This document shows, piece by piece, positions 36,074-51,006 of a stretch of 64,000 nucleotides of DNA; positions within the stretch are counted from its first letter, which is position 1, and the number at the start of each line of letters is the position of its first letter. Under the pieces are notes generated by a model. It was not told where the DNA came from and did no database searches. It was given only the letters and a program-made list of their open reading frames with translations. Position numbers and translations under genes: made by a program. The stretch is from an uncultured Chloroflexia bacterium (GTDB lineage: Bacteria > Chloroflexota > Limnocylindria > Limnocylindrales > CSP1-4): NCBI GenBank assembly GCA_963746855.1, contig CAVVDC010000015.1, positions 55,295 through 119,294 of the forward strand, read 5' to 3'.

Positions 36074-37549
36074 CTAGGTCGGCAGCGTGGAGATCGCCGC
36101 GGCAGCCGACTCGACGAACTCGATGATGGCGTTGGGGAAGATCCCGAGCACGATCGTCAACGCCGTCGCAGCCGCCAGTCCGCCCCAGACCAGGGCGCCG
36201 TGCCGCGGTGCCGGCGCGTCGGTCGCTGGATCGCGCATGTACATGTAGACGATGACTCGCAGGTAGTAGAAGGCGGCCACGGCCGCGTTCAGGACAGCGA
36301 TGACGGCCAGGAACGACAGGGGCCCGCCCGCCTCGACCGCGGCGAGGATGACGTAGGCCTTGGCGAAGAACCCGGCCGTCGGCGGGATCCCGGTCAGGGA
36401 CAGCAGGAACAGGGCCATGAGGATGCCCAGCAGCGGCTCCTTGCGCCCGAGCCCCGCGAAGGTGTCGAGCTGGGACGTCACGCCGGTCCGCTTCTGGAGC
36501 GCCGCGACGACCGCGAACGCCCCGAGGTTCATGAACGTGTAGGCGGCACCGTAGTAGAGCAGGCCCTCGAGGCCCTGGATCTCGCCGGCCGCGTAGGCCG
36601 CCAGCCCGACCAGCATGTAGCCGGTGTGGGCGATCGAGCTGTACCCCAGCATCCGCTTGACGTTGTCCTGGGTCAGCGCGACCAGGTTGCCGAGGGTCAT
36701 CGTGAGCGTGGATAGCACGAGCATGACCGGCATCCACCACTCGGCCAGCGGGCCGAGCGCCTCGACGAAGAGCCGCAGGATGAGCGCGAACGCGCCGATC
36801 TTCGGGCCGACCGAGAGGTAGCCCGTGACGGGCGTCGGCGAGCCCTGGTAGGCGTCCGGCGTCCAGTAGTGGAACGGGACCGCCGCGATCTTGAACGCGA
36901 CACCCGTGGTCATGAACGCGAGCCCCATCGCCAGTCCCGGTGAGAGCGGGGCGTTCCCCGCCACGATGTCGCCAAGCGCGGCGGCGACATCATCGACCCG
37001 TGTCGAACCGGTCAGGCCGAAGACGAACGCGAGTCCGAACAGGAAGATCGCCGAGCTGAAGGAGCCCAGCAGGAAGTACTTGATCGCACCCTCGGTCGAG
37101 TAGGAATCGGTCTTGTGGAACCCGGCCAGGAGGTAGCCCGGCAGCACCATCAGCTCGAGCCCGAGGAACAGGAGCAGCAGATCGGTCCCACCGGCCAGCA
37201 GCATCGCGCCGGTCATCGCGAAGACGAGGACGATGGAGAACTCCGCCACCGGCAGCCCGCGAGGCAGGAGGTAATCCGGGGCGAACATGATCGTCAGCAC
37301 GACGATCGAGATGAACAGGATGTCGAGGAAGCTCGTGAGCGCGTCGACCGTGTACGCACCGCCGAACGCGGTCGCCTCGGTCGTCCCGATCGCGATGGTC
37401 GCCGCGGTCGTCAGCGCGAGCCCGATGAAGGCCGTCCCGACCGCCAGCGCGGTGTGCCCGGGCCGGATCAGGTCGACGACGAGGATCGCGACCGCCGTCA
37501 GGATCGCGAGGACGATCGGGCCGATGGTGACCAGGTCCTGCCAGCTCAA
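36074..37549 (-). CDS. nuoN: NADH-quinone oxidoreductase subunit N
   Basis: 491-aa polytopic antiporter-like subunit (FHYWTPDAYQGSPTPVT). Last gene of the nuo operon. Its start overlaps the nuoM stop by 4 nt. Confidence 0.9.
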   Translation of the reverse strand: MSWQDLVTIGPIVLAILTAVAILVVDLIRPGHTALAVGTAFIGLALTTAATIAIGTTEATAFGGAYTVDALTSFLDILFISIVVLTIMFAPDYLLPRGLPVAEFSIVLVFAMTGAMLLAGGTDLLLLFLGLELMVLPGYLLAGFHKTDSYSTEGAIKYFLLGSFSSAIFLFGLAFVFGLTGSTRVDDVAAALGDIVAGNAPLSPGLAMGLAFMTTGVAFKIAAVPFHYWTPDAYQGSPTPVTGYLSVGPKIGAFALILRLFVEALGPLAEWWMPVMLVLSTLTMTLGNLVALTQDNVKRMLGYSSIAHTGYMLVGLAAYAAGEIQGLEGLLYYGAAYTFMNLGAFAVVAALQKRTGVTSQLDTFAGLGRKEPLLGILMALFLLSLTGIPPTAGFFAKAYVILAAVEAGGPLSFLAVIAVLNAAVAAFYYLRVIVYMYMRDPATDAPAPRHGALVWGGLAAATALTIVLGIFPNAIIEFVESAAAAISTLPT

Positions 37550-39207
37550 TGCGCGGCCCCGCCTTCAGCCGGTGCCGGCAGGGCGGTCTCGACCCGCCCG
37601 TTCATCAGCACGTAGACGATTCGGGCGAGGATGCCGCCCACAAGGAGGAGCAGCAGGCCGGCCACCACGACCGACGAGATCGCGATCGGCGTGCCGGCCT
37701 GGGCTGCGACGATCGTTTCGGTCACGGTCGTCTCGACGAGGTCGAGGAGGAGCCCGGGCTGGACGCCGAATACGACCACCAGGGCCGCCAGCGGCACGAG
37801 CGTCAGGATCTCAACGGGGGTCATGTCGGTCAGGTGGTCGCCCAGGCCCGCGAAGAAATCCGACAGCTCGCCGAACGCGATCCGGCCGAACATGTACAGC
37901 AGGTAGCCGGCGGCCAGGATCATGACGAAGGCGGCGATCGCGGCGGCTCCCGGGTTCACCACAAAGGTGCCCACCAGCACCAGGAACTCGCCGACGAAGC
38001 CCGAGAGGCCGGGCAGCCCGCCGGACGCGAAGACGAAGAACCCGAACACCGTGACGTAGACCGGCATCTTCGCCGACAGGCCGCCCATCCTCGCGATCGT
38101 CCGGTCGTGAGTCCGCTCATAGATGACGCCGACCAGCAGGAAGAGGGCGCCCGTGATGAGGCCGTGGTTGATCATCTGCAGGATCGCGCCCTGGATGCCC
38201 TGCTGGGTGAACACGAAGATCCCGAGCGTGACGAAGCCCATGTGGCTGACCGACGAATACGCCACGAGCCGCTTGAGGTCGGGCTGGACGAGGGCCACGA
38301 CCGCGCCGTAGATGATCGCGATGAGCGAGAGCACGATGATCGCCGGGGCGAACGTCTGCGCCGCATCGGGGAAGAGCGGCACGGCGAACCGGATGAAGCC
38401 GTACGCGCCGAGCTTCAGCATGATCGCGGCGAGGATCACGGAGCCGGCCGTCGGGGCCTCGGTGTGGGCGTCCGGCAGCCAGGTGTGGAACGGGAACATC
38501 GGCACCTTGATGGCGAACGCCAGGAAGAAGGCGATGAACGCCCCGAGTTGCAGCCCGTCGGAGAAGCCGCCGCCGGGCGTCGTGGCGAACGCGCGCAGGT
38601 TCTCGAAGTCGAACGCGCCCGCCCAGCTGCCCGTCGCGTCCTGGTAGAAGAACGCGGTCGCCAGGATGGCCACGAGCATCAGCAGCGAGCCGACGAGCGT
38701 GTACAGCACGAACTTGATCGTCGCGTAGATCCGGTTCGCGCCGCCCCAGATCCCGATGATCAGGTACATCGGGACCAGGACGATCTCCCAGAAGATGTAG
38801 AAGAGGAAGAGGTCGAGCGCGAGGAAGACCCCGATCATGCCGACCTCGAGGACGAGGAAGGCGATCATGTACTCCTTGATCCGGGTCTGGATCGGGGCGA
38901 AGCTCGCGAGGATGCTGATCCAGCTCAGGGTGGTCGTCAGCACGACCAGCGCGATCGAGAGCCCATCGGCGCCGAGCTTGTACTGGATGCCGAAGAACGG
39001 GATCCAGTCGACGGTCGTCTCGAACTCGAAGCCCTCGTTGCCGGGCAGGTACGCCACCAGCAGGACGAGCGAGACGACCCAGGCCAGGAGCGCGAACCCG
39101 AGCGCGACCGGACGCGCGACGCTCGTCGGCAGGACCGCGACGGCGATCGCGCCGACGAGCGGCACGAACGTGACGATGGTCAGGATCGGCAGGCTGGCGA
39201 GGTCCAT
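37546..39207 (-). CDS. nuoM: NADH-quinone oxidoreductase subunit M
   Basis: Start MDLASLPILTIVTFVPLVGA at ATG 39207, just after the nuoL stop. Contains FPFHTWLPDAHTEAPTAGSVILA. The track extension to 39564 is out of frame over nuoL. Confidence 0.9.
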   Translation of the reverse strand: MDLASLPILTIVTFVPLVGAIAVAVLPTSVARPVALGFALLAWVVSLVLLVAYLPGNEGFEFETTVDWIPFFGIQYKLGADGLSIALVVLTTTLSWISILASFAPIQTRIKEYMIAFLVLEVGMIGVFLALDLFLFYIFWEIVLVPMYLIIGIWGGANRIYATIKFVLYTLVGSLLMLVAILATAFFYQDATGSWAGAFDFENLRAFATTPGGGFSDGLQLGAFIAFFLAFAIKVPMFPFHTWLPDAHTEAPTAGSVILAAIMLKLGAYGFIRFAVPLFPDAAQTFAPAIIVLSLIAIIYGAVVALVQPDLKRLVAYSSVSHMGFVTLGIFVFTQQGIQGAILQMINHGLITGALFLLVGVIYERTHDRTIARMGGLSAKMPVYVTVFGFFVFASGGLPGLSGFVGEFLVLVGTFVVNPGAAAIAAFVMILAAGYLLYMFGRIAFGELSDFFAGLGDHLTDMTPVEILTLVPLAALVVVFGVQPGLLLDLVETTVTETIVAAQAGTPIAISSVVVAGLLLLLVGGILARIVYVLMNGRVETALPAPAEGGAAH

Positions 39208-39209
39208 GG

Positions 39210-41174
39210 TCAGCGCCCCACCAGCACGAGATACGAGCCGGCCATGACGATCAGCCCGACCGCGATGCCGAGGGCGTAGTTCTGCACCCGACCGGTCTGG
39301 ACGCGGCGGAGCCCGCGCCCCGACGCGACGGTCCCGCGGCCGACGGCGTTGACCGTGCCATCGACGACCTCGCGATCGAACCACCACATGGCGTTCGCGA
39401 CGCGGCCGCCGATGACCATGAACAGCAGGTGGTTGAGATCGTCGAACCACCACTTGTTGAGCGAAGCGCGATACAGGAAGGGCACCCTTGCGGTGAGCTC
39501 GCGGACGCGCTCCGGACGCGCGGGGAGGCGCAGGCCGAGGATCTCGGCGCCGAAGAGTCGCCATGCGATGGCGATACCGACGACCGCCACGGTCACGCTC
39601 GCGAGGATGAGGACGCCGTCGATGCCGGCCAGCTGGAAGGCCGCCTCCTCGTGCTGCAGGAGCTCGGTGGCCTCGGCGAACACGGGTTCCAGCCAGGCCT
39701 GGATCGTGCTCGCCCCGAACGGCAGCCCGAGCGCCATGCCCAGGACGACGGACGCGATGGCCAGCAGGATGAGCGGGATCGTCATGACCGGCGCCGACTC
39801 GTGGACCCGGTCCCAGACGGCCTTCGGGCCGCGGAACGCGCCCCAGAACGTCAGGCCCATCAAGCGGAACATGTAGAACGCGGTCAGCCCGGCGACGATG
39901 AAGCCGATGAGCCAGACCCAGGTGAACCCGAGCTTGAACGACTCGCCGAGGATCTCATCCTTCGAGAAGAAGCCGGCCAGCGGCGGGATGCCCGCGATGG
40001 CCAAGGAGCCGATGAGCATCGTCACGTAGGTGATCGGGATCTTCTTCGAAAGGCCGCCCATGTGGCGCATGTCCTGTTCCTCGTGGACGGCGTGGATGAC
40101 CGAACCCGAGCCGAGGAACAACAGCCCCTTGAAGAAGCCGTGGGTCATGAGATGGAAGATGGCCGCGGTGAACGCCCCGACGCCCAGGGCCGCGAACATG
40201 TAGCCGAGCTGGGACAGCGTCGAATAGGCGAGCACGCGCTTGATGTCGGTCTGGGTCATCGCGATCGAGGCCGCGAGGATGGCCGTGAAGATGCCGATGG
40301 CTGCGACGACGACCATCGTGTCCGGCGACGCGGCGAAGAGCAGGTTCGCGCGGGCGACGAGATAGACGCCGGCGTTGACCATCGTCGCGGCATGGATGAG
40401 GGCCGAGACTGGGGTCGGGCCCTCCATCGCGTCGGGCAGCCAGACGTGCAGTGGGAACTGCGCGCTCTTGCCCATCGCGCCCGCGAAGACCAGGAGCGCG
40501 ACCACGGCGATCGGGATCGGGAACGCCACGAGGGTCGGGCTCAGCATGACCTCGATGGAGTCGCGGATGTTCAGCGTCCCGGTGTTCGCGAAGATGGCCA
40601 TGATCCCGAGCGCGAACCCGACGTCGCCGACGCGGTTGACGATGAACGCCTTCTTGGCCGCCAGGGCCGCCGAGCGCTTCCGGTACCAGAAGCCGATGAG
40701 CAGGTAGCTCGAGAGGCCCACCAGCTCCCAGGCGACGAACACGACCAGCCACGAGTCAGCCAGGACCAGCAGCAGCATGCTGAACATGAACAGGTTGAGG
40801 TAGGCGAAGAAGCGCCAGTAGCCCGGGTCGTGGCTCATGTAGCCGATCGAGTAGACGTGGACGAGCAGGCCGATGGTCGTGACGACGATCAGCAGGCAGG
40901 CCGTCAGCTGGTCGACGAAGAAGCCGACCTCGACCGTGAACTGGCCGGCCGGGATCCAGTCGAAGTAGGTCACGCCGTAGCCGTGCTCGCCGAACGGCTC
41001 GGCGCCGGTCAGCGCGCCGTACGCCACGGCCATCGCGATCGCCCAGACGGCGAGGATGGCGAGGACCGGGATCCAGTGGGCCTGCTTGCCCAGCCGGCGG
41101 CCGATGAGGGCCGTGATCGCGAAGCCGGCGAGCGGCAGGCTGACGAGCAGCGGCAGGAGCGACTCGGGGCTCAC
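39210..41174 (-). CDS. nuoL: NADH-quinone oxidoreductase subunit L
   Basis: GTG 41174 ([18 protein letters not shown]) overlaps the nuoK stop (GTGA). Contains [30 protein letters not shown]. Confidence 0.9.
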
Positions 41175-41482
41175 TGGCGCATCACGTCGTACTCGTCGAC
41201 GAGCGGTGTCTTCTTGTTGCGGTAGATAGCGATGACGATGGCCAGCCCGACCGTTGCCTCGGCGGCCGCCACGGCCATGACCATCAGCGCGATGACCGAT
41301 GCCTGGGACCCGAGCTCCGGGATGAACGCCCCGAACGCGAGGATCGAGAGGTTGACGGCGTTGAGCATCAACTCGATCGACATCAGCATGCTGATGGCGT
41401 TGCGCCGGGCCAGGAACCCGAACGACCCGATGGCGAACAGGATCCCAGACAGGACGAGATAGGCGTCGAGCGAATCGCTCAC
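41171..41482 (-). CDS. nuoK: NADH-quinone oxidoreductase subunit K
   Basis: 103 aa, three TM helices: [35 protein letters not shown]...[14 protein letters not shown] 41482 overlaps the nuoJ stop. Confidence 0.9.
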
Positions 41483-42072
41483 GACGGGCCGCCCGGTTCC
41501 CGCTTGGCCAGGAAGACGCCACCGACGACGGCGGCGAGCAGCAGGACGCTGACGATCTCGAAGGGCAGCACGAAGTCGCTGAACAGCAGGCGCGAGAGCG
41601 CGTCGGTGCCCTGGTGGATCCGTTCGCCCACCTCGTGCCAGTCCGTGGCGCTGACGGCCAGCGCGATGAGCACGGCGATGATGACCGCGGCGATCGCCGC
41701 CGGCCCGGCCTGCGTCTGGAAGACCAGGCGGCTGGGCGCGTCCTTGGTCTGGGTCAGCATGATGGCGAACAGGATCAGGACGCTGATGGCCCCGATGTAG
41801 ACGATCACCTGGGCGGCCCCGAGCAGCGGCGCGCCCATCAGCACGTAGATGCCGGCCAGGGCCCCGAAGCACACGATCATGGCCAGGCCGCAGCGGATGA
41901 TGTCGCGCATCGTGACCACGAGCAGGCCGCTGATGAGCATCAGGGCGGCGAGGACGAAGAACAGGGCGTCGGCCCAGTCCTGGCCGAGGAACAGGAGCAT
42001 CACCCCGGCGAAGCCGAGGACCGCGCCGACCACCATGGCCGCGAGGACGATGGGGATGAGCTTCTTGAGCAC
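41479..42072 (-). CDS. nuoJ: NADH-quinone oxidoreductase subunit J
   Basis: 197 aa, five TM helices. [31 protein letters not shown]...[21 protein letters not shown] is typical of NuoJ. Confidence 0.88.
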
Positions 42073-42078
42073 GACCCG

Positions 42079-44703
42079 CTACTCGTGGCCGCCGGGGCCG
42101 AGGGCCGGACCGGCGCCGTGGCCGTTGCCGTGGGCATGGCCGTTGCCGTGGTCGTGCCCGTTGCCCGAGCGTGCCGCGATGCCCGGGATCGTCGCCGGGA
42201 GGACGGGCAGCATGCGGGCTGGATCGAACGTACGACCCTCGGCCGCCGCGGCGTCCACCCAGTTCCGCTCGCGGCGGACGTACGTCACCTCGGTCTCGCG
42301 GGCGATCTCGGCGAGCGAGATGAGGTCGATGGTCGGTTCCGCGCGACTGGTGTGGGCGAGCTCGATATCGCCGCCGTCGCGCAGGGCGTCGTACGGACAC
42401 GCATCGACACAGATGCCGCACAGGATGCAGCGGCTCTCATCGACCTCGTACTTCTCGAGCACCCGCGGCTTGGGCATGAGCGCGCCCGTCGGACAGGTCT
42501 CGGCGCACCGCCCGCAGGACACGCACGGCGTGTCGTTGAGGCTCATGTCCAGCGGCGTCGTCACGAGCGTGTCGAAGCCGATGCGCATGAAGTCGTAGCA
42601 GGCCGCGCCGACGACCTCGGAGCACACCTGGGCACACCGGCCGCAGTCGATGCAGCGCGACGGCTCGCGCAGGATGAAGGCGTGCGAATCGTCGCGGACG
42701 TAGTCGTGGTTGACGCCGGTGAAACGGTTCTCGGTCACGCTCCGGTAGCCGGCCCCCTGGTCGTACTGGGGCTCGAGCGTCTTGAGCGTCGTGCCGTATT
42801 CGATGCCGAGGCGGCGCAGGTCGCAGAAGCCGATGGCCTCGCACGTGCACTGCAGGCAGCGGGTCGATTCCGCCACCGCGTCCTCGCGTGTGTACGGAAG
42901 CTCGTACTCGATGTAGCTGTGGTTGCGCTCCTCGGCCTCGAGGGCCGTCATGCGGTAGCGCGGCTCCTTCACCTCGCCGGTGAAGGGCACGATGGACAGG
43001 AACTCGGGCTGCGGCTCGGCCAGCGTCTGGCGGGTCCGGATCGCGCCGAGGTCCAGGCCCTGGAGGAACGCGTCCACCGCGTAGGCCGCGCGCCGGCCCT
43101 CGGCGACGGCCTGCACGACGGTCGCGGCCCCGACCCGCACGTCGCCGGTGCCGAAGACCCCGGGACGCCCGGTCTCGAAGGTGACCGCGTCGGCCTTGAG
43201 CCGGTGCTGCTTGGTCGCCTCGACACCGTCGGCACCCGAGCCGATCCAGCTGAGGTCCGGTCCCTGCCCGATGGCGAGCAGGACGCGGTCGCAGGGCACG
43301 GTGAACTCCGTGCCGGGCGCCGGTTCCGGTCGCCGCCGACCGGACGCGTCCGGCTCGCCGAGCTGCATCCGGATGAATTCGACGCCGGTCACGTTGCCCG
43401 CCTTGTCGGTGATGACCCGGGTCGGGCCGGCCTGGAAGATGGCCGTGACGCCCTCTTCGATGGCCTCGTGGACCTCGTTGGACGCGGGCATGTCCTTCAT
43501 GTCGCGGCGGTAGACGAGGGTCACGTCCTTCGCGCCCTGGCGGACCGAGGTCCGGCTGCAGTCCATCGAGGTGAACCCGCCGCCGATGACCACGACCCGC
43601 TTGCCGGCATGGTCCGGGTAGGGCAGGCCGAGCGTCGCGGTGCGCAGGTACTCGAGCCCGTCGAGGACCTCCGCCGCATCCTCGCCCGGGATGCCGAGCT
43701 TGTTGGTGTCGTAGCAGCCGATGGCCACGATCACGGCGTCGAAGCCCTGGTTGGTCAGGTCATCGAGCGTGAAGTCGGTGCCGAGCCCGGCGTTGCACAC
43801 GATCTTGCCGCCGAGCCGGGTGACCAATTCGTATTCGGCGTCGAGGACCTCGATCTTCGGCAGCCGGTACTGCGGGATGCCGTAGCGCAGCATCCCGCCC
43901 GGGGCCGGATCGCGCTCGAAGACGGTGACGTCGTGTCCGGCGATGAGCAGGTAGAACGCGGCGGCCATCCCGGCCGGGCCCGACCCGATGACCGCGGCGC
44001 GGCGGCCACTCGGCGCCTGGCGCTCGAACGGCAGCGGCGGGTCGACGCCCTCGTCGAGCATCGCCTTGAGTACCTGGTCGCCGGCGTAGCGGTGGCTGTC
44101 GCGGATGGCGATCGCCTCGTCGACCTCGTCACGCCGGCAGTGCTCCTCGCACGGCGCCGGGCAGACCCGACCGAGGACGGACGGGAACGGGATCGTCCGC
44201 TTGAAGATGCGCGTGCTCTCGCGCCAGTTGGCTTCGGCGTTGGCCTTGAGGAAGCCCGGGATGTCGATGTGGCTCGGGCACTTGTTCTGGCAGGGCGGCA
44301 GGCAGTAGGCGTTGTGGTCGCTGAAGATCAGCTCGAGGTTCGTCCGGCGCAACCGGCGGACTTCCTCGGTCTGGGTCTGGACCTTCATCCCCGGTTCGCA
44401 CGTCCGCGAGCAGCTGATGGGCGGGTGCTCCTCGCCCTCGACCTCGACGACGCACATCCGGCACGCCCCGAAGCCGGGCAGCTTCGGCTCGTAGCACAGG
44501 GTCGGGATCTCGATCCCGTTGTCGCGGCAGACCTCGAGGATGGTCTGCCCGGCGAAGCCCTCGACGACCCGCCCGTCGACCTCGATGCGGATCCGCGGCG
44601 ACGTCTGAGGCCGTTGGGGCGAGCGGGTCTCCAGGAGACGCTCGGCGAGCGAATCCGTCTCCGTGTCGGGGTGGCTGTCGGGACGCGTCAACAGGTCGGC
44701 CAT
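42079..44703 (-). CDS. 874-aa Fe-S flavoprotein fusion in the position of nuoG. Domain order: NuoG-type [2Fe-2S] domain, GltD-like NAD(P)H/FAD oxidoreductase, C4 motif, 2x[4Fe-4S] domain, orphan NuoI-like C-terminal half-motif, His-rich tail.
   Basis: aa 37-125: [10 protein letters not shown]...[16 protein letters not shown]...SCSRTC. aa 130-550: H-x3-C-x3-C-x3-[52 protein letters not shown]. aa 616-627: [12 protein letters not shown]. aa 684-737: [11 protein letters not shown]...[16 protein letters not shown]. aa 750-800: [28 protein letters not shown]. Tail: [17 protein letters not shown]. No molybdopterin-like NuoG C-terminal domain. Start trimmed to ATG 44703, 8 nt after the upstream stop. 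Confidence 0.8.
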
Positions 44704-44711
44704 GGGTCGCC

Positions 44712-46037
44712 TTATCGGCTCGCGCCGACGGCCACCGCGATCGGGTGGCAGACGCCGGCAGGGCAGGAGCTGTTCAGGAGGTGCTCGTCCAGTTCCGCCC
44801 GGAAGTATCGCATCACGCTCGTCAGCGGGAGGGTCGCCAGCCGCTCGTGATCGCACAGCGCCGAACCGACGATGTCGGACGAGAGGTCGGCCAGGAGTTC
44901 GACATCGGTCGGGCGCGGCCGCCCGTCCACGGCGCGATCCGCGATCTCGACGAGCCGTCGCGTGCCGATCCGGCAGGGGATCGTCTTGCCGCAGGCCTCG
45001 CTCGCGCAGAACCCGGTCAGGAGCCGGGCGAGGTCGACGACGCAGGCACGGTCATCGGCGACGACGACCGAACCCGAGCCGATGTGGGCGCCGGCCGCGC
45101 GAAGCGGCTCGAAGTCGTACGCCGTGTTCAGCTGGTCGGCGGGCAGCAGGCCGCCCGACGGGCCACCGACCAGGACCGCCTTGATCGAGCGACCTGCCGG
45201 CAGGTCGCCGCCGAGCGCCACGACCTTGCGCAACGGCGTCCCGAGCGGCACTTCGGCGATCCCGTCCCGTGACGGGGTCCGGACCTGGACCAGCACGGTC
45301 CCCGGGCTCGTCTTCGAGCCCGTCTTCGCGAACTCGTCGGCGCCATGGCGGACGATCCAGCCGACGGCGGCCAGGGTCTGCACGTTGTGGACGACCGTCG
45401 GGGCGTCCCACAGGCCCCGCTCCGCAGGGTGTGGGGGCCGCTGCTCCGGCTGGCCGCGCTTGCCCTCGAGGGCCTTGAGCAGAACGGTCTCCTCGCCCAG
45501 CATGTAGGCGCCCTGGACGGGCCGGACCGTGACGGCCAGGTCGGTCCGCGGGCCGAAGGCGTCCGGGCCGATGTATCCGGCCTCCTCCGCCGCGCCGATC
45601 GCCGACTCGAGCCCGCGGATCGCCTCGGCGTCCTCGGCCCGGACCGCGATGATCGCCTCGGTCGCGCCCGTGGCGAAGGCCGCGATGGCCAGCCCCGCGA
45701 TGACGGCATACGGGTCGCGTTCGAGCAGGAACCGGTCCGTCCCCGAGGCCGGGTCCGCGCCGTAGCCATTGGCGACGACGAACCGGCGCGGGGCGTCGCT
45801 CGCGGCGGCGGTCCGCCACTTCTCGGCGGCGAGGTAGCCGGCGCCGCCCCGGCCCCGCAGGCCGGACGCCGCGATGACCCCGATGGTCGCGCTCGGACCG
45901 AGGTCGCGAACCGCCTTCGCCAAGCCCTCGAAGGCGCCCGACCGGACCGCGGCGTCGAGGTCGGTGGGATCGTCGGCATCGGCACGCTCGAGCAGGATCG
46001 TCGGCCATCCGGCCGGGGTCTTGAGGCGATCGACCAC
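44712..46037 (-). CDS. NuoF-like (51-kDa family) subunit with degenerate nucleotide motif and one missing N3-cluster Cys
   Basis: GLRGRGGAGY, GAYMLGEETVLLKALEG, RPPHPAERGLWDAPTVVHNVQTLA. It has ANGYGADPASGTDR where NuoF has NADEsEPGtfKDR, and EACGKTIPCRIG where NuoF has ESCGKCtPCReG. GTG start at 46037. Confidence 0.8.
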   Translation of the reverse strand: MVDRLKTPAGWPTILLERADADDPTDLDAAVRSGAFEGLAKAVRDLGPSATIGVIAASGLRGRGGAGYLAAEKWRTAAASDAPRRFVVANGYGADPASGTDRFLLERDPYAVIAGLAIAAFATGATEAIIAVRAEDAEAIRGLESAIGAAEEAGYIGPDAFGPRTDLAVTVRPVQGAYMLGEETVLLKALEGKRGQPEQRPPHPAERGLWDAPTVVHNVQTLAAVGWIVRHGADEFAKTGSKTSPGTVLVQVRTPSRDGIAEVPLGTPLRKVVALGGDLPAGRSIKAVLVGGPSGGLLPADQLNTAYDFEPLRAAGAHIGSGSVVVADDRACVVDLARLLTGFCASEACGKTIPCRIGTRRLVEIADRAVDGRPRPTDVELLADLSSDIVGSALCDHERLATLPLTSVMRYFRAELDEHLLNSSCPAGVCHPIAVAVGASR

Positions 46038-46039
46038 GG

Positions 46040-46744
46040 TCAGGCGCTCGCCGCAGAGCTCGGACCGCGACCAGCGCGACCGGTGGGTCGCCCGAGCGCG
46101 GTCTCCAGCGCGGACACGTAGTCCGCCTCGGGCGGCCGGTGTGCGGTCACGGCCGCCGCCTGCTCGAGCGCCGCCGGCGGCTCGAAGCGCAGGTGCCCGT
46201 AGTAGCTGGCAGTGCCGTAGATCATCGCGTACCAGGCCCCGGTGAGATGGCTGATCCGCTTGAGCGCCGCGACCGGCAGGTAGCCGTACGCCGCCTGGGT
46301 CGCCTCGAGGATCTGCAGCATCCGGGCCGGATCGTGGTCGTGCTCCTCGAGGACGGCGTCCACGAGCGCGAGGTCGACCGGCGTGAAGGGGACAAAGGCG
46401 GGATCAGGGACGGTGCGCCCGGAGCGCCGGAGCGCCGATTCCTCGCGCCGCTCGCCGTAGGTCTCCGGGGCGCCCCAGTGGACGTGATAGCGGCCGCGCG
46501 TGTCGATGCCGCCCATGTCGATGCACTCGATCGGGCAGGCCTGGGCACACTGGAAGCAGGTCTCGCACTTGAGCGTGCCCCACTCGTCGTATAGCAGCTG
46601 GAGGCGGCCGCGGAACTTGCCCGGGACGTCGAGGCGGACCTCGGGATACATCACCGTGACCTTCGGTTCGAAGAACCGGCGCAAGGTCAGGCTCATGCCC
46701 TTGACGATGCCGAGGCCGGGAACCAGGCCGGACAGGAAGCTCAT
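46040..46744 (-). CDS. Chimeric subunit: NuoI N-terminal half (single 4Fe-4S motif) fused to a NuoE-like N-terminal helical domain without the [2Fe-2S] part
   Basis: aa 1-90: LRRFFEPKVTVMYPE...KFRGRLQLL...KCETCFQCAQACPIECID (NuoI-like). aa ~120-190: VDAVLEEHDHDPARMLQILEATQAAYGYLPVAALKRISHLTGAWYAMIYGTASYYGHLRFEP (NuoE/24-kDa N-terminal-like). No further Cys. ATG 46744 overlaps the nuoH stop (ATGA). Confidence 0.75.
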   Translation of the reverse strand: MSFLSGLVPGLGIVKGMSLTLRRFFEPKVTVMYPEVRLDVPGKFRGRLQLLYDEWGTLKCETCFQCAQACPIECIDMGGIDTRGRYHVHWGAPETYGERREESALRRSGRTVPDPAFVPFTPVDLALVDAVLEEHDHDPARMLQILEATQAAYGYLPVAALKRISHLTGAWYAMIYGTASYYGHLRFEPPAALEQAAAVTAHRPPEADYVSALETALGRPTGRAGRGPSSAASA

Positions 46745-48096
46745 GTCCCGGACCGCAGCGACGTGAACACGACGATGGCCGTCGCCGTGACGAACAGGTT
46801 CAGCAGCGACGCCGGCAGCAACCACTTCCAGGCGAAGTCCATCAACTGGTCGATCCGGACCCGCGGCAGCGTCCCACGCATCCAGACGAAGGTGAACACG
46901 AACACGTACGTCTTGCCCATGAACCACACGATCCCGGCGACCCAGTCGAGGCCGATGTAGGCCCAGGCGCCGATGAGCGCCATGATGAAGAGATTGGCGA
47001 GGACGAATCCGATGACCAGCGCCTGCCAGCCCTTGATCCGGGAACTCGCGATCCAGACCGGTGCGGCGAAGACGAGGGTCAGGACGAGCGGCACGATCGC
47101 CACGAGGAGCAGCAGTCCGATCCCAAGCGAACCCGGGTCGAACCCGACGGTCACGGGCCACGGCCACGGGAACGGCGCGTTCCAACCGCCGAGGAAGAGC
47201 GTGACGAAGAGCGCCGAGACGATGAACACGTTCACGTATTCGGCGAAGAAGAAGAAGCCGAAGCGCATCCCGGAGTACTCGGTCGCGAAGCCCGCGACGA
47301 TCTCCGAGTCCGCCTCGGTCAGGTCGAACGGGGTCCGGTTCGCTTCGGCGGTCGCCGCGATGAAGAAGATCAGCGCCCCCAGCGGCTGCTGGAAGACGTA
47401 CCAGTCGGTGAACCAGCCGGACTGGTTCTGGACGATCTGGTTGAGGCTCATCGTCCCGGCGAGGAGGATGAGCCCGACGACCGACAGCGTCAGCGGGATC
47501 TCGTAGGAGACGACCTGGGCCGCGGCCCGCAGGCCGCCGAGCAGCGAGTACTTGTTGTAGCTGGACCAGCCGGCCATCAGCAGGCCGACGACGGACAGGC
47601 CACCGATGGCGAAGAAGTACAGCAGCCCGAGGTTCAGGTCCTGCCCGAAGAGCCCCGGCGCGAACGGGATGACCAGCAGGCTCATGACGCTCGCCAGGTA
47701 CACGACGACCGGCGCCCAGGTGAAGACGATCGGATCGGCCCCGGTCGGGGTGAAGTCCTCCTTCATCAGGACCTTCAGGCCGTGCACCACCGACAGCAGC
47801 GACCCGAACGGGCCCACCCGATCCGGCCCGATCCGAAGGTTCATCAGCGCGATGACCTTCATCTCCATGTAGATGATCAGGAACGCGGTCGGGATCGTGA
47901 TCAGCAGGATGACCGTCGCCGCGACCACGAACCGGACGATCGGCAGGTTGTCGGCCAGGATGTCGATGACGGTCGGGCCGAGGAACACGATGGCCGCGAC
48001 CGAACCGACGGTCAGCGCGATCAACAGCGGCACGACCGTGAACACGATCTTGCCCGGCACCGTCAGCCGGTTCCAACTTTTGGCGATCACGGTCAC
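46741..48096 (-). CDS. nuoH: NADH-quinone oxidoreductase subunit H (with ~45-aa N-terminal extension)
   Basis: MEMKVIALMNLRIGPDRVGPFGSLLSVVHGLKVLMKEDF...NRTPFDLTEADSEIVAGFATEYSGMRFGFFFFAEY. Confidence 0.92.
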   Translation of the reverse strand: MTVIAKSWNRLTVPGKIVFTVVPLLIALTVGSVAAIVFLGPTVIDILADNLPIVRFVVAATVILLITIPTAFLIIYMEMKVIALMNLRIGPDRVGPFGSLLSVVHGLKVLMKEDFTPTGADPIVFTWAPVVVYLASVMSLLVIPFAPGLFGQDLNLGLLYFFAIGGLSVVGLLMAGWSSYNKYSLLGGLRAAAQVVSYEIPLTLSVVGLILLAGTMSLNQIVQNQSGWFTDWYVFQQPLGALIFFIAATAEANRTPFDLTEADSEIVAGFATEYSGMRFGFFFFAEYVNVFIVSALFVTLFLGGWNAPFPWPWPVTVGFDPGSLGIGLLLLVAIVPLVLTLVFAAPVWIASSRIKGWQALVIGFVLANLFIMALIGAWAYIGLDWVAGIVWFMGKTYVFVFTFVWMRGTLPRVRIDQLMDFAWKWLLPASLLNLFVTATAIVVFTSLRSGT

Positions 48097-48133: not shown

Positions 48134-49354
48134 TCACTTGTCGACGCCTCCCATGATCGGGTCCAGGCTGGCCATGACGGCCATGGTGTCGGCGATCAAG
48201 TGCCCGGGCATCATCAGGCCGACGGCCTGGAGGTGGATGAACGAGGGGTCGTGGATACGCATCCGGAACGGCTGGTCGGTGCCGTCGCTCACGACATAGG
48301 CGGCGTACTGGCCGCGCGGTCCTTCCACCGCCGCGTACGCCCTGCCGGGCCGCGGCCGCAGGAGCCGCGGCAGCTTGGCCATGATCGGGCCGTCGGGCAT
48401 CTGGTGGAGGCATTGGTCGATGATGCGCAGGCTCTGCTTGATCTCATCCATCCGGAGCAGGTAACGCGCCAGGCAGTCGCCCTCCGTCCGGGTCGGGATG
48501 TCGAACTCGAGCTCCGGGAAGACGCTATACGGATGCGCCCGCCGGACGTCGAACGGCACGCCCGTCGCCCGCAGGTTCGGGCCCGTCATCGCCATCCGGA
48601 GTGCCGCGGGCGAGTCGATGACGCCGAGTCCGCGCATCCGGCGCACGAAGATCTCGTTCTCGTTGAGCAGCGCGTTGCCGGCTTCGATCTGCTCGGTCGC
48701 GTGGCTCATCCAGTCGCCGAGCCGGCTCAGGAACTCGTGGTTGAGGTCGCCGTTGACGCCGCCGATGCGCATGTAGTTGAAGAGCATCCGCTGGCCCGTC
48801 AGGGACGCGAGCATGTCGACGATCTCGTCGCGCTCGATGAACGACCACAGGATCGGTGTCAGGCCGCCCAGGTCCAGGGCCATCCAGCCGAGGAAGAGGG
48901 CGTGGCTGGCGATCCGGTTGAGCTCGGTGGCCAGGACGCGGATGTACTCCGCCCGGCGCGGCACTTGGACGTCGAGCAGCTTCTCGAACGCCAGGACGCC
49001 CGGCCACTCGCAGTAGAGCGAGCTGACGTACTCGAGCGGGTCCAGGTAGCAGATCGCCTGGTGGTAGTCCGCGTTCTCGCACAGCTTCTCGACGCCCCGG
49101 TGGAGGTAGCCCAGGACCGGGTCGAGGTCGACGACCTTCTCGCCGTCGAGCTTGAGCACGACCCGCAGGACGCCGTGGGTGGACGGGTGCTGCGGGCCCA
49201 TGTTGATGAGCATCTGGCCGTCGCCGAGGGTGTAGAACTCGGCCTCGCGCTCCGTGCGTGGCGGATACGGCGGGACCGGCTCGAAGACGCCCAGGTCGCG
49301 GTCGAGGGTGACGCGCGGGTCGTCGGAGGGCGGCCGGTCGGTGGTGGTCGTCAT
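48134..49354 (-). CDS. nuoD: NADH-quinone oxidoreductase subunit D
   Basis: NMGPQHPSTHGVLRVVLKLDGEKV...LGYLHRGVEKLCE...ERYLLRMDE; 406 aa. Confidence 0.93.
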   Translation of the reverse strand: MTTTTDRPPSDDPRVTLDRDLGVFEPVPPYPPRTEREAEFYTLGDGQMLINMGPQHPSTHGVLRVVLKLDGEKVVDLDPVLGYLHRGVEKLCENADYHQAICYLDPLEYVSSLYCEWPGVLAFEKLLDVQVPRRAEYIRVLATELNRIASHALFLGWMALDLGGLTPILWSFIERDEIVDMLASLTGQRMLFNYMRIGGVNGDLNHEFLSRLGDWMSHATEQIEAGNALLNENEIFVRRMRGLGVIDSPAALRMAMTGPNLRATGVPFDVRRAHPYSVFPELEFDIPTRTEGDCLARYLLRMDEIKQSLRIIDQCLHQMPDGPIMAKLPRLLRPRPGRAYAAVEGPRGQYAAYVVSDGTDQPFRMRIHDPSFIHLQAVGLMMPGHLIADTMAVMASLDPIMGGVDK

Positions 49355-49370: not shown

Positions 49371-49919
49371 TCAGTTCGTTCCCCGGCGGATCAGCGCCGT
49401 GCTCGCCACCGCGGGTGGCGTATGCGTCCGCTCCATCGGGCGGACGCCGCCGCCCGGCGATCGGGCGGCGTCATCGGGCAGGTAGAAGTCCTTGCGGAGC
49501 GGGAAGCTCTGGTAGTCGGGCGGCATGTATATGCGGCGCAGGTCGCGGTTGCCCTCGAACGTGATCCCGAACATGTCGTAGGCCTCGCGCTCCATCCACT
49601 CGGCGCCCTTCCACAGGAAGGTGGCCGACGGCACGCGGGGATCCTCGCGCGACAGGCCGTCGGCGATGACCCGGAGCCAGTCGGGCGTCGTCTCGCTCCA
49701 CAGGTGGTAGACGACCTGCATGACCACCCCGGTGTCGACCCCGGCGAGGTCCGCGAGGAACTCGAAGTGGAAGGCCGGCTCATCGTGGAGCGCGGTGAGG
49801 ACCGGCACGACATCGCCCGGCGCGATGCGGATCTCGGTCTCGTCGTGGCGCTGGCGCACGGGACCCGTCAGCTGGTCGGCGAAGCGAGCCTCCAGGCGCT
49901 CCTTGAACCGTCGGTCCAC
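49371..49919 (-). CDS. nuoC: NADH-quinone oxidoreductase subunit C
   Basis: FEFLADLAGVD...VVYHL...WKGAEWMEREAYDMFGITFEGNRDLRRI. GTG 49919 lies directly after the nuoB stop. The track extension to 50177 is out of frame over nuoB. Confidence 0.85.
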   Translation of the reverse strand: MDRRFKERLEARFADQLTGPVRQRHDETEIRIAPGDVVPVLTALHDEPAFHFEFLADLAGVDTGVVMQVVYHLWSETTPDWLRVIADGLSREDPRVPSATFLWKGAEWMEREAYDMFGITFEGNRDLRRIYMPPDYQSFPLRKDFYLPDDAARSPGGGVRPMERTHTPPAVASTALIRRGTN

Positions 49920-49921
49920 GA

Positions 49922-50659
49922 TCAGACGTCCTGCGGCACGGTCGGCCCGATCGCCCGGTCCGGCCAATGGCCGCGGCGATCCTTGACCAGCTGCTGGAGC
50001 TTCATCATCCCGTAGATGAGGCCCTCGGGTCGGGGCGGGCAACCGGGCACGTAGACGTCGACGGGCATGACCCGGTCGATGCCCTCGACCGTCGAATAGC
50101 TGCGTTTGTACCGGCCGCCCGAACAGGTGCAGTCGCCGAGGGCGACACACCACTTCGGCTCGGGCATCTGCTCCCACAGCCGGACGAGCGGTCCAGCCAT
50201 CTTGGTCGTCAGCGTGCCCGCGACGATGAGCACGTCGGCCTGGCGCGGGCTGGCCCGGAACGGGAACATGCCCCAGCGATCCATGTCGTTCTTGGAGGTC
50301 GCGGTGGACATCATCTCGATGGCGCAGCAGGCCAGCCCCGACAGCAGCGGCCAGAGGCTGTTCATCCGGATCAGGTCGAGGACGTAGTCCGCCTTCGTCG
50401 GGATGACCTCGAGGAACCCGCCCCAGCGCGCATCGTCGCGCCGGCCGAGCCCGCTGGCCTCGAACTCGCGCAGGTGGGTGATGTCGCTCTCGCGCCCGCC
50501 CTCGTAGGCGGCCGGGTCGGCTGCCTGCCAGAGCGTGTTCGGGACGACGATCGGCGCCAGGACCGCACGATCGCGATCCGTGGTCGTGAGGGCATCGGCG
50601 GCGGGCTCGTCCTTGGCCGCGCGGCCCTTGGGCGTGCCGGTCCCCGGCGTCACCGCCAT
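49922..50659 (-). CDS. nuoB: NADH-quinone oxidoreductase subunit B (extended N-terminus)
   Basis: N2-cluster ligands are present: GLACCAIEMM, ALGDCTCSGG, VPGCPPRPE. Confidence 0.92.
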   Translation of the reverse strand: MAVTPGTGTPKGRAAKDEPAADALTTTDRDRAVLAPIVVPNTLWQAADPAAYEGGRESDITHLREFEASGLGRRDDARWGGFLEVIPTKADYVLDLIRMNSLWPLLSGLACCAIEMMSTATSKNDMDRWGMFPFRASPRQADVLIVAGTLTTKMAGPLVRLWEQMPEPKWCVALGDCTCSGGRYKRSYSTVEGIDRVMPVDVYVPGCPPRPEGLIYGMMKLQQLVKDRRGHWPDRAIGPTVPQDV

Positions 50660-51006
50660 GTCAGGGCTCCCTTCCGCCAGGCGTAGGCCAGCCCCAGCAG
50701 GAGGATCGCCACGAAGATGAGCATGCTCACCAGGCCGCCCAGGAGCAGGTCGCGGAACACGAGGGCCCAGAGGTAGATGAACACGACCTCGATGTCGAAC
50801 GCGACGAACAACAGGGCGTAGATGTAGAACGACAGGCCGAACCGGCCGTGCGTGTCACCGTACGTGTCGATGCCGGATTCGTAGGGCAGGCCCTTGTGCT
50901 CGTCGCCGCGGTTCCGATGCGAGATCAGCCAGGCGGCGCCGAACGTCACGAACACGAACGAGACGCCCGCGAAGGCAAAGCCCACGACGTACCAGATGCC
51001 GGTCAA
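50650..51006 (-). CDS. nuoA: NADH-quinone oxidoreductase subunit A
   Basis: 118 aa, three TM helices: YESGIDTYGDTHGRFGLSFYIYALLFVAFDIEVVFIYLWA. Confidence 0.9.
   Translation of the reverse strand: MTGIWYVVGFAFAGVSFVFVTFGAAWLISHRNRGDEHKGLPYESGIDTYGDTHGRFGLSFYIYALLFVAFDIEVVFIYLWALVFRDLLLGGLVSMLIFVAILLLGLAYAWRKGALTWR

Follow-up and report, generated by a model that had tools for sequence, protein, structure and literature searches.

A predicted complex I with NuoI divided over two polypeptides around a StnABC-like input module

Few enzymes are as well studied as respiratory complex I, whose set of core subunits is regarded as fixed. Here we describe a nuo operon in which one of the core Fe-S subunits, NuoI, appears in two parts with the genes for electron input nested between them; to our knowledge, no core Fe-S subunit of complex I has been reported to be split with the input module inside it. 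The stretch of DNA analysed (the window, 64,000 nt) comes from an uncultured soil member of the Chloroflexota (Limnocylindria; CSP1-4) and covers positions 55,295-119,294 of contig CAVVDC010000015.1; all coordinates below are window positions. Its minus strand carries a 13-gene operon in the order nuoA-B-C-D-H, P1, P2, P3, nuoJ-K-L-M-N, and the core subunits of the Q and P modules (A, B, C, D, H, J, K, L, M and N) are all encoded in this single operon. P1 (46040-46744, minus strand; 234 aa) is identified by profile and structure-chain matches as a chimera of the N-terminal half of NuoI and the N-terminal domain of NuoE, P2 (44712-46037, minus strand; 441 aa) as a NuoF-like flavoprotein core of the Bfu/HydB/StnB type, and P3 (42079-44703, minus strand; 874 aa) as a StnC/NfnA-like fusion with the C-terminal half of NuoI at its end. 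We consider it probable that the 13 genes encode one respiratory complex I whose input module is a reduced derivative of the Stn/NfnABC (Nfn-Bfu) enzymes, lodged inside nuoI, and whose clusters N6a and N6b lie on two chains.

The genes follow one another closely. The stop codon of nuoH overlaps the start codon of P1 (ATGA at 46741-46744), a 2-nt gap separates the P1 stop (TGA, 46040-46042) from the P2 start (GTG, 46035-46037), and an 8-nt gap (44704-44711) separates the P2 stop (TAA, 44712-44714) from the P3 start (ATG, 44701-44703); 6 nt lie between the end of P3 and nuoJ. The junctions of P1 to P3 are translationally coupled. An earlier note on this DNA had given the first three of these junctions, and had placed the input genes between H and J on the minus strand rather than in the canonical order A-B-C-D-E-F-G-H-I-J. 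All of its coordinates for the gene order are borne out, and each junction proved correct when re-read in the sequence.

Two complementary halves of NuoI

The first half of NuoI occupies residues 1-95 of P1 (46460-46744, minus strand) and includes the N-terminal helix, the KVTVMYPE and KFRGR segments, and motif 1, CETCFQCAQACP, at 46532-46567. Profile models of NuoI cover P1 (residues 12-86) with their N-terminal part alone: TIGR01971 matches over its positions 1-63 of 121, and NF004536 over its positions 12-87 of 180. NuoI/TYKY chains of solved structures align with residues 13-77 of P1, for example residues 23-87 of 7ar7_I. The protein has a single CxxCxxCxxxCP motif.

The second half is found near the end of P3 (residues 746-805; 42289-42468, minus strand), where a strand is followed by motif 2 (motif C of P3, 42394-42429) and an extension reading ...IELAHTSR...; this segment is invariant in related loci. 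When the C-terminus of P3 is searched alone (residues 742-874, 133 residues), the NuoI models are the best matches, and TIGR01971 covers it with positions 71-116 of 121, complementing the match to P1 without overlap. Solved NuoI chains match it over residues 99-152, that is, motif 2 and the segment that follows, with an E value of 2.6e-11.

Joining the two parts in silico gives a continuous NuoI. The halves score 49.0 and 40.9 bits with TIGR01971 separately, and the join of P1 (1-93) with P3 (746 onwards) scores 93.5 bits in one stretch covering positions 1-115. The joined sequence aligns end to end with NuoI/TYKY chains (E 1e-19), with all eight Cys in register. The point of division lies in the hairpin that links the motifs, and only there is a short difference in length. 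Searching the window with the NuoI of Escherichia coli leads to the same places: residues 3-88 match at 46484-46735 and residues 60-129 at 42337-42525, while a third, weaker match (42466-42819), overlapping the second and extending upstream of it, also lies within P3, and no match in the window falls outside P1 and P3.

By regular-expression search, the pattern CxxCxxCxxxC occurs exactly four times in the operon: once in P1 and three times in P3 (motifs A, B and C). A six-frame scan of the 64-kb window for the stricter CxxCxxCxxxCP pattern, which motif A of P3 lacks, gives no further site. Motifs A and B form a HydA/NuoG-type 2x[4Fe-4S] ferredoxin domain (42478-42675, minus strand), which is matched by Fer4_Nqo3 (residues 677-742), agrees motif for motif with 9bov_A, and has all of its Cys invariant. 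Because there are only four motifs, and because A and B match the two-cluster domain of StnC-type chains, motif C of P3 and the motif of P1 are the sole unpaired pair.

The earlier note had recognised the NuoI N-terminal signature and single motif of the 234-aa product, and in the 874-aa product a complete NuoG-type 2x[4Fe-4S] pair followed by a third motif in a NuoI-like context. From these it had proposed two complementary orphan half-motifs on two polypeptides, on either side of the input genes. The profile and chain matches agree with both descriptions. The C-terminal motif proves to be NuoI-like in context, its flanks agreeing with the latter half of the NuoI profiles. Taken together, the complementary profile coverage, the joined alignment and the conservation described next confirm, at the level of sequence, that the NuoI of this complex I is divided over two polypeptides, P1 and P3.

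Related loci were collected by scanning one genome per species with an alignment of four P1 sequences, followed by confirmation with tblastn. At least 515 loci were confirmed, and conservation and gene order were taken from the best 80, which are metagenome-assembled genomes (MAGs) of Chloroflexota/Limnocylindria, several with contigs >2 Mb. Wherever the contig reaches, the order nuoD-nuoH-P1-P2-P3-nuoJ is kept in these 80; the two exceptions are locus L055, with no match to P3 or nuoJ, and locus L060, with no nuoH. Across the roughly 70 distinct Limnocylindria sequences in the 80 loci, both half-motifs are invariant, namely LKCETCFQCAQACPIECIDMGG and a 25-residue segment of the C-half. Homologues of P1 in public metagenomes and genomes number >2900; the best 120 are all at least 80% identical, and those that are named are labelled Candidatus Limnocylindrales (Chloroflexota).

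Some of these relatives depart from the usual form. L060 (3055-7990 of JANOTJ010000375.1, from the same MAG as L032) holds a second P1-like and P2-like pair, 79% and 70% identical to those of the window. The gene upstream of the pair encodes a GltD protein of 856 aa with an ordinary two-motif ferredoxin domain at its end, and the contig stops right after P2; the pair could be a paralogous use of the module outside nuo, or a rearranged operon. Two loci with a Limnocylindria-type operon at about 80% identity (L036 and L076) are deposited as 'Patescibacteria group' and 'Candidatus Polarisedimenticolia', and are probably mis-binned contigs or mislabelled MAGs. A 626-aa protein on an 829-kb contig (P0244) has an N-terminus matching P1 and is probably a P1::P2 fusion, either a true gene fusion or the result of a lost stop codon.

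The nested module and its relatives

The closest solved relatives of all the inserted parts are the StnABC/NfnABC enzymes of the Nfn-Bfu type (8oh5, 9bov and 9n5u; PMC10482914, PMC11829005, PMC12018979): P3 corresponds to StnC/NfnA, P2 to StnB/NfnB, and the E domain of P1 to StnA/NfnC. The earlier note had called the nested genes E/F/G-like. Their position between the NuoI halves stands, but they are not canonical nuoE, nuoF and nuoG, being closer to the chains of these transhydrogenases.

In P1, the NuoI half is followed by a NuoE/StnA-type N-terminal helical domain (residues ~119-192; 46169-46390, minus strand). The NuoE family PF01257 matches over its positions 2-64 of 145 only, which correspond to that helical domain, and the 2Fe-2S thioredoxin-like part of NuoE, with cluster N1a, is missing. 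The best match in the PDB is 9bov_C (residues 20-89), and the solved chains closest to residues 119-191 are the small subunits of StnABC-type enzymes (9bov_C and 8oh5_A).

P2 contains the Complex1_51K and NADH_4Fe-4S domains in a profile search. Its E values are about 1e-100 against HydB, StnB (8oh5_B), NfnB (9n5u_B) and 9bov_B, compared with 1e-76 or weaker against genuine NuoF, which places it clearly nearer to the B subunits of the Bfu type. It lacks both the N-terminal and the C-terminal Fe-S domains of such a subunit. A bifurcating BfuBC core is defined by particular clusters (PMC9304861); these hallmarks, a B subunit with an extra 2Fe-2S and 2x[4Fe-4S] and a C subunit with a 2Fe-2S, are absent from P2 and P1 of the window.

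P3 aligns over residues 38-769 with 9bov_A (E 1e-161), 8oh5_C (StnC; 3e-144) and 9n5u_A (NfnA; 3e-139), and shares the domain order of those chains: 2Fe-2S domain, GltD insertion, Cys cluster and two-cluster ferredoxin domain. Its profile matches are Fer2_4, Fer4_20/Pyr_redox_2 (GltD), Fer4_Nqo3 and further Fer4 families; with NF009454 it scores 549 bits, short of the cut-off of 916. The N-terminal 2Fe-2S domain (residues 37-112; 44368-44595, minus strand; Fer2_4 E 8e-22) has its four Cys, C70, C81, C84 and C98, invariant. The GltD-like domain (residues 134-549; 43057-44304, minus strand; Fer4_20 and Pyr_redox_2) comprises two 4Fe-4S clusters and Rossmann folds for flavin adenine dinucleotide (FAD) and for nicotinamide adenine dinucleotide with or without phosphate (NAD(P)H), and matches NfnB/GltD chains with E values of 1e-78 to 1e-66. 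Its YRR motif (Y398, R399 and R400) is invariant in a 60-sequence alignment, and the NADPH site looks intact. A four-Cys cluster motif lies between the GltD-like and ferredoxin domains. All cluster-ligand Cys of P3 are invariant in the Limnocylindria alignment, and its median identity of 88% makes it one of the most conserved genes of the operon; its homologues number >7900.

The alignment of P3 with StnC-type chains ends at residues 769-772, the point at which StnC goes on to its FdhF-type cluster motif. The formate-dehydrogenase-like (FdhF) C-terminal domain is absent, and the NuoI C-half and a tail stand in its place. The tail (42082-42180) is rich in His, Gly and Asn, is variable among relatives and absent in Thermoleophilia, and might bind metal or act as a linker. 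One P3 homologue (P0467; 1075 aa, 92% identity, on a 1.57-Mb contig) also contains the NuoJ Pfam family, and is either a further gene fusion or a case of a lost stop codon.

In an exhaustive search of representatives, fusions of the type NuoI-N::NuoE turn up at identities as low as about 30%. Among them is a family of at least 1200 proteins that carries the label Thermoleophilia (Actinomycetota). In the two Thermoleophilia loci L082 and L084, the order is nuoA-B-C-D-H, NuoI-N::NuoE, B subunit, P3 homologue, nuoJ-K-L-M-N. The P1 homologue there (253 aa) joins the NuoI N-half to a full NuoE with all four 2Fe-2S Cys, and the B subunit, of HydB/StnB type and about 640 aa long, has an N-terminal 2Fe-2S and a C-terminal 2x[4Fe-4S]; the hallmark Fe-S domains of BfuBC are thus all present. 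The P3 homologue (824 aa, 45-47% identical to P3) ends in ...CPTGAITTNPRLLIRYDLDESRCIFCGDCVEACPYDALEQTSYFELASYSR..., a C-terminus that reads as even more NuoI-like than that of the window version. In one of these homologues (L084, 7034-9508), LYWS replaces the LYRR motif for the 2'-phosphate of NADPH, which hints at a changed nucleotide specificity in some members.

A separate lineage of Chloroflexota (L086, 6481-14281; GCA_016190715.1) has nuoA-B-C-D-H followed by P1-, F- and P3-like genes, the last with a NuoI-type C-terminus. In this case, flavin reductase, GYD and pyruvate:ferredoxin oxidoreductase genes follow P3; nuoJ-N are not adjacent, and the membrane-arm genes must be located elsewhere. 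The arrangement is thus found in both other lineages, at 30-47% identity. Since the cut lies at the same structural place in all three, a single origin of the NuoI split is likely. Judged from these comparisons, the split is older than the lineage of the window, and the window version is a reduced form of a Thermoleophilia-like one, its E part having lost the 2Fe-2S domain and its B subunit the two accessory Fe-S domains.

Proposed enzyme and competing explanations

The most likely product of the operon is a proton-pumping NAD(P)H:quinone oxidoreductase with N6a and N6b held by two chains. In a 2x[4Fe-4S] ferredoxin fold, each cluster is bound by three Cys of one motif and the CP Cys of the other; with NuoI split between its motifs, both N6a and N6b would therefore be ligated across the interface of P1 and P3. 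We infer that the halves assemble in trans. Each would supply one strand of the inter-motif hairpin, their association would restore the fold, and each cluster would take three Cys from one chain and one from the other. With the halves on the first and last proteins of the module, the input module would be doubly tethered to the Q module, an arrangement that could make up for the missing scaffold of the NuoG C-terminal domain.

Electrons from NADPH would enter at the FAD of P3, and those from NADH probably at the flavin mononucleotide (FMN) of P2. The two streams would meet in the Fe-S junction of P3, leave through the ferredoxin-domain branch, and pass by way of N6a/N6b and N2 in NuoB to quinone, with NuoH, NuoJ-N and NuoA pumping protons. 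In soluble Stn, the main path is FAD-C7-C6-C5-C4 (2Fe-2S)-C3-B1-FMN, and C2/C1, which lead to the FdhF-like domain, lie off this path on a branch that is apparently vestigial (PMC10482914). Because the NuoI C-half replaces the FdhF-like domain about 20 residues past the ferredoxin domain, this dead-end branch now seems placed to feed N6a/N6b. The window enzyme is probably non-bifurcating, since the Bfu-specific clusters are absent; the Thermoleophilia relatives, which have kept them, may bifurcate or confurcate.

We would give even odds to a fuller account that joins the history to the mechanism. It holds that a whole soluble StnABC-like operon was inserted in the inter-motif hairpin of nuoI, that the ferredoxin domain forms in trans, and that docking makes use of the Stn dead-end branch. 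The Thermoleophilia enzyme would then be a membrane-bound bifurcating pump acting on as many as four substrates (NADH, NADPH, ferredoxin and quinone), and the Limnocylindria enzyme a streamlined NADH/NADPH or NADPH-specific quinone reductase.

Several observations weigh against the enzyme as proposed. The first concern P2, in which catalytic positions are changed, with altered motifs at residues 90-102, 349-355 and 394-399. Its N3 motif reads CGKTIPC, and the second N3 Cys is replaced in all 68 of the 68 Limnocylindria homologues (by Thr in 41 and Ser in 27). At the FMN/NADH site, D-E-G-D-P-G has become Y-G-A-D-P-A (the motif N(G/A)DE.(D/E)PG reads NGYGADP), removing the conserved acidic D-E pair, and NNVET has become HNVQT. 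P2 and the NuoE domain of P1 also evolve fastest, with a median identity of 72-74% compared with 88-90% for P3 and NuoD. As to NuoI itself, neither half nor their 93.5-bit join reaches the TIGR01971 cut-off of 113 bits. In single-chain AlphaFold2 (AF2) models, the NuoE domain of P1 has a predicted local distance difference test score (pLDDT) of 80-97 and the NuoI half <50 (50-sequence alignment); for P3 (60-sequence alignment), the GltD domain is confident, and all Fe-S regions (residues 619-815), the complete ferredoxin domain included, are at <50, so that these models speak neither for nor against the pairing of the halves. Finally, every instance comes from a MAG or a metagenome contig, with no named isolate among the labelled matches, which may also be why the arrangement has gone unnoticed.

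The changes in P2 make NADH input uncertain, as does the rapid evolution of P2 and the NuoE domain; such input is plausible, but less certain than input from NADPH. Conservation is high at the altered residues themselves (NGYGADP, the GRGGAG loop and GEET), and LCDHER is invariant after the fourth N3 Cys. This pattern suggests that the cluster has acquired another ligand and that the nucleotide site has been modified, rather than that both have decayed at random; the His or Asp of LCDHER is possibly the replacement ligand of N3.

The same changes are the main support for an alternative that we regard as unlikely but worth taking seriously, namely a quinone reductase of the same architecture that uses NADPH only. 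Here the FAD of the GltD domain in P3 would be the sole working input, and P2 and the NuoE domain would serve as a scaffold with decayed or re-purposed FMN and N3 sites. The loss of the 2Fe-2S domain of NuoE, the slower divergence of P3 and the invariant YRR motif for NADPH fit this alternative too. It is harder to reconcile with the conservation of the altered residues, LCDHER among them, which suggests a site that is modified but under selection, or with the fact that P2 is full-length and translationally coupled in nearly all of the 80 loci, the partial or missing matches being usually at contig ends.

A further alternative, to which we attach a rather low probability, concerns direction: proton-motive force and quinol, or NADH, would reduce NADP+, and the complex would serve as a supply of NADPH, by reverse operation or as a coupled transhydrogenase. 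Complex I is reversible, the module descends from a reversible NADH/ferredoxin:NADP+ transhydrogenase, and two dinucleotide sites are wired to one Fe-S junction. Sequence gives no sign of direction, however, and by their labels the organisms are Chloroflexota of soil and freshwater. Since it bears on direction only, reverse operation overlaps the proposed oxidoreductase rather than excluding it.

The remaining alternatives question the pairing of the motifs or the membership of the complex. Motifs B and C of P3, which are 21 residues apart, might form a clostridial-type dicluster, leaving motif A to pair with the motif of P1, or the P1 motif unpaired. The spacing is typical of small ferredoxins, Fer4_7, Fer4_9, Fer4_10 and Fer4_21 match residues 720-774 across both motifs, and some NuoI chains align over B and C together. 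We nevertheless consider this pairing quite improbable: A and B match the HydA/NuoG-type domain of StnC-type chains, which have no motif C, the Fer4_Nqo3 match covers the same two motifs, and the flanks of motif C are specific to NuoI in three lineages, including an FE(L/M)A..(S/Y)R segment, while the NuoI-specific N-terminus is present on P1.

It is similarly doubtful that a canonical NuoI, with or without NuoEFG, is encoded elsewhere and joins the membrane subunits, with P1-P3 forming a separate or accessory complex. In one MAG (L060), a second P1-P2 pair does stand in a non-nuo setting, and in L086 nuoJ-N do not follow P3. In the window, however, there is no nuoI-, nuoE-, nuoF- or nuoG-like sequence besides P1-P3, the start of P1 lies within the stop codon of nuoH, and the gap from P3 to nuoJ is 6 nt. 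The order H-P1-P2-P3-J is kept in nearly all loci that are long enough (L055 and L060 being the exceptions), contigs >2 Mb included, and in a soluble enzyme the NuoI N-terminal segment of P1 would be purposeless.

An artefact (misassembly, frameshifted pseudogene or gene-calling error) can be dismissed, as can chance: despite a G+C content of about 70% and many spurious long open reading frames (ORFs) over the real genes, the arrangement, for which the earlier note had raised the question of a chimeric assembly, is seen again in hundreds of assemblies made independently in different studies, with invariant motifs and cluster ligands, in the many P1 and P3 homologues and in two further lineages at 30-47% identity.

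Known systems and the rest of the operon

Compared with canonical complex I (NuoA-N; Nqo1-15 of Thermus thermophilus; Nuo of E. coli), the operon shares the complete Q and P modules, the N2 cysteines of NuoB, the NuoI N-terminal segment with two CxxCxxCxxxCP motifs and the post-motif segment, an FMN-type subunit, and a NuoG-like N-terminus with 2Fe-2S and 4Fe-4S clusters. In the canonical enzyme NuoI is a single chain, and the genes for electron input stand between nuoD and nuoH; here NuoI is split at the inter-motif hairpin, and the input genes follow nuoH and precede nuoJ. The canonical N module is absent: the NuoE part has no N1a, and the NuoF-like subunit has CGK(T/S)IPC at N3 and an altered FMN site. 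Canonical NuoG ends in a molybdopterin-like domain, which P3 lacks; P3 has instead an inserted GltD domain for FAD and NADPH.

The Stn/NfnABC enzymes, on the other hand, are soluble, whereas the module of the window lies in a nuo operon with both of its ends fused to NuoI halves and the FdhF-like domain replaced. Their bifurcation-specific clusters in the B and C subunits are absent in the window and present in the Thermoleophilia version.

Two predicted systems come near to this arrangement. Nuo-Bfu, predicted in Geobacter, Nitrospirae and Planctomycetes, has 14 subunits (A-N), with BfuABC in place of canonical NuoEFG (Schut et al. 2022, PMC9304861); like the window operon, it is a complex-I-like cluster whose NADH module has been swapped for a Bfu-type ABC module in mid-operon. 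Where that paper describes Nuo-Bfu, it speaks of no GltD/NADPH domain and of no NuoI that is split or fused, and the phyla listed there include neither Chloroflexota nor Actinomycetota. In Mbx-like operons, a GltD-related flavoprotein stands in place of NuoI (Degli Esposti 2015, PMC4758237), so that a GltD-type NAD(P)H flavoprotein is again combined with a complex-I-like membrane module; in those operons NuoI is reported to be substituted, however, whereas the window locus keeps both NuoI halves, the complex I-type NuoD and NuoB, and E-like and F-like subunits. In the open-access papers and preprints searched, neither a split NuoI nor an Nfn-Bfu module inside nuo was found described, in keeping with the earlier statement that no complex I built this way was known.

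If the halves assemble in trans, they would make up a natural two-chain 2x[4Fe-4S] ferredoxin fold with each cluster ligated across the interface. A soluble bifurcating transhydrogenase would then have been wired into a proton pump, which would bear on the origin of the N module of complex I, and NADPH-linked respiration, or an NADPH supply driven by proton-motive force, would be predicted in Limnocylindria and Thermoleophilia. There is also a consequence for annotation. P1 and P3 fall below the cut-offs of the curated NuoI, NuoE and NuoG models, and deposited names are generic ('ferredoxin', 'NAD(P)H-dependent oxidoreductase subunit E', 'FAD-dependent oxidoreductase'); because of these scores and names, automated reconstructions may report complex I as incomplete, without NuoI, NuoE and NuoG.

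The other genes of the operon, all on the minus strand, are of the expected kinds, and for most the family was identified in the syntenic gene of one relative (L001). Upstream of the module, nuoA (50650-51006; 118 aa) was recognised as an ORF and by PF00507 in the relative, and nuoB (49922-50659; 245 aa) has the N2-cluster cysteines CC...C...CP, a tblastn match to E. coli NuoB at 48% identity, and PF01058 in L001. The gene for NuoC (49371-49919; 182 aa, GTG start) corresponds to a PF00329 protein in L001, likewise of 182 aa, and that for NuoD (48134-49354; 406 aa; PF00346 in L001) has a median identity of 90% across related loci. Downstream are nuoJ (41479-42072; 197 aa; PF00499 in L001), nuoK (41171-41482; 103 aa, GTG start; PF00420), nuoL (39210-41174; 654 aa; PF00662 and PF00361), nuoM (37546-39207; 553 aa; PF00361) and nuoN (36074-37549; 491 aa; PF00361), the last four again by their counterparts in L001. 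Scans for RNA found no tRNA genes and no Rfam families at the gathering threshold in the whole 64-kb window.

The gene nuoH (46741-48096, minus strand), identified as an ORF and by its match to E. coli NuoH, encodes a protein of 451 aa; the E. coli protein has 325 aa, and those of the Thermoleophilia loci have 372-375 aa. E. coli NuoH matches the window as two segments 244 nt apart, and the insertion relative to it, of about 80 mostly hydrophobic residues, lies at 46929-47173, between the residues that match 263 and 269 of the E. coli protein; these extra residues may be additional transmembrane segments.

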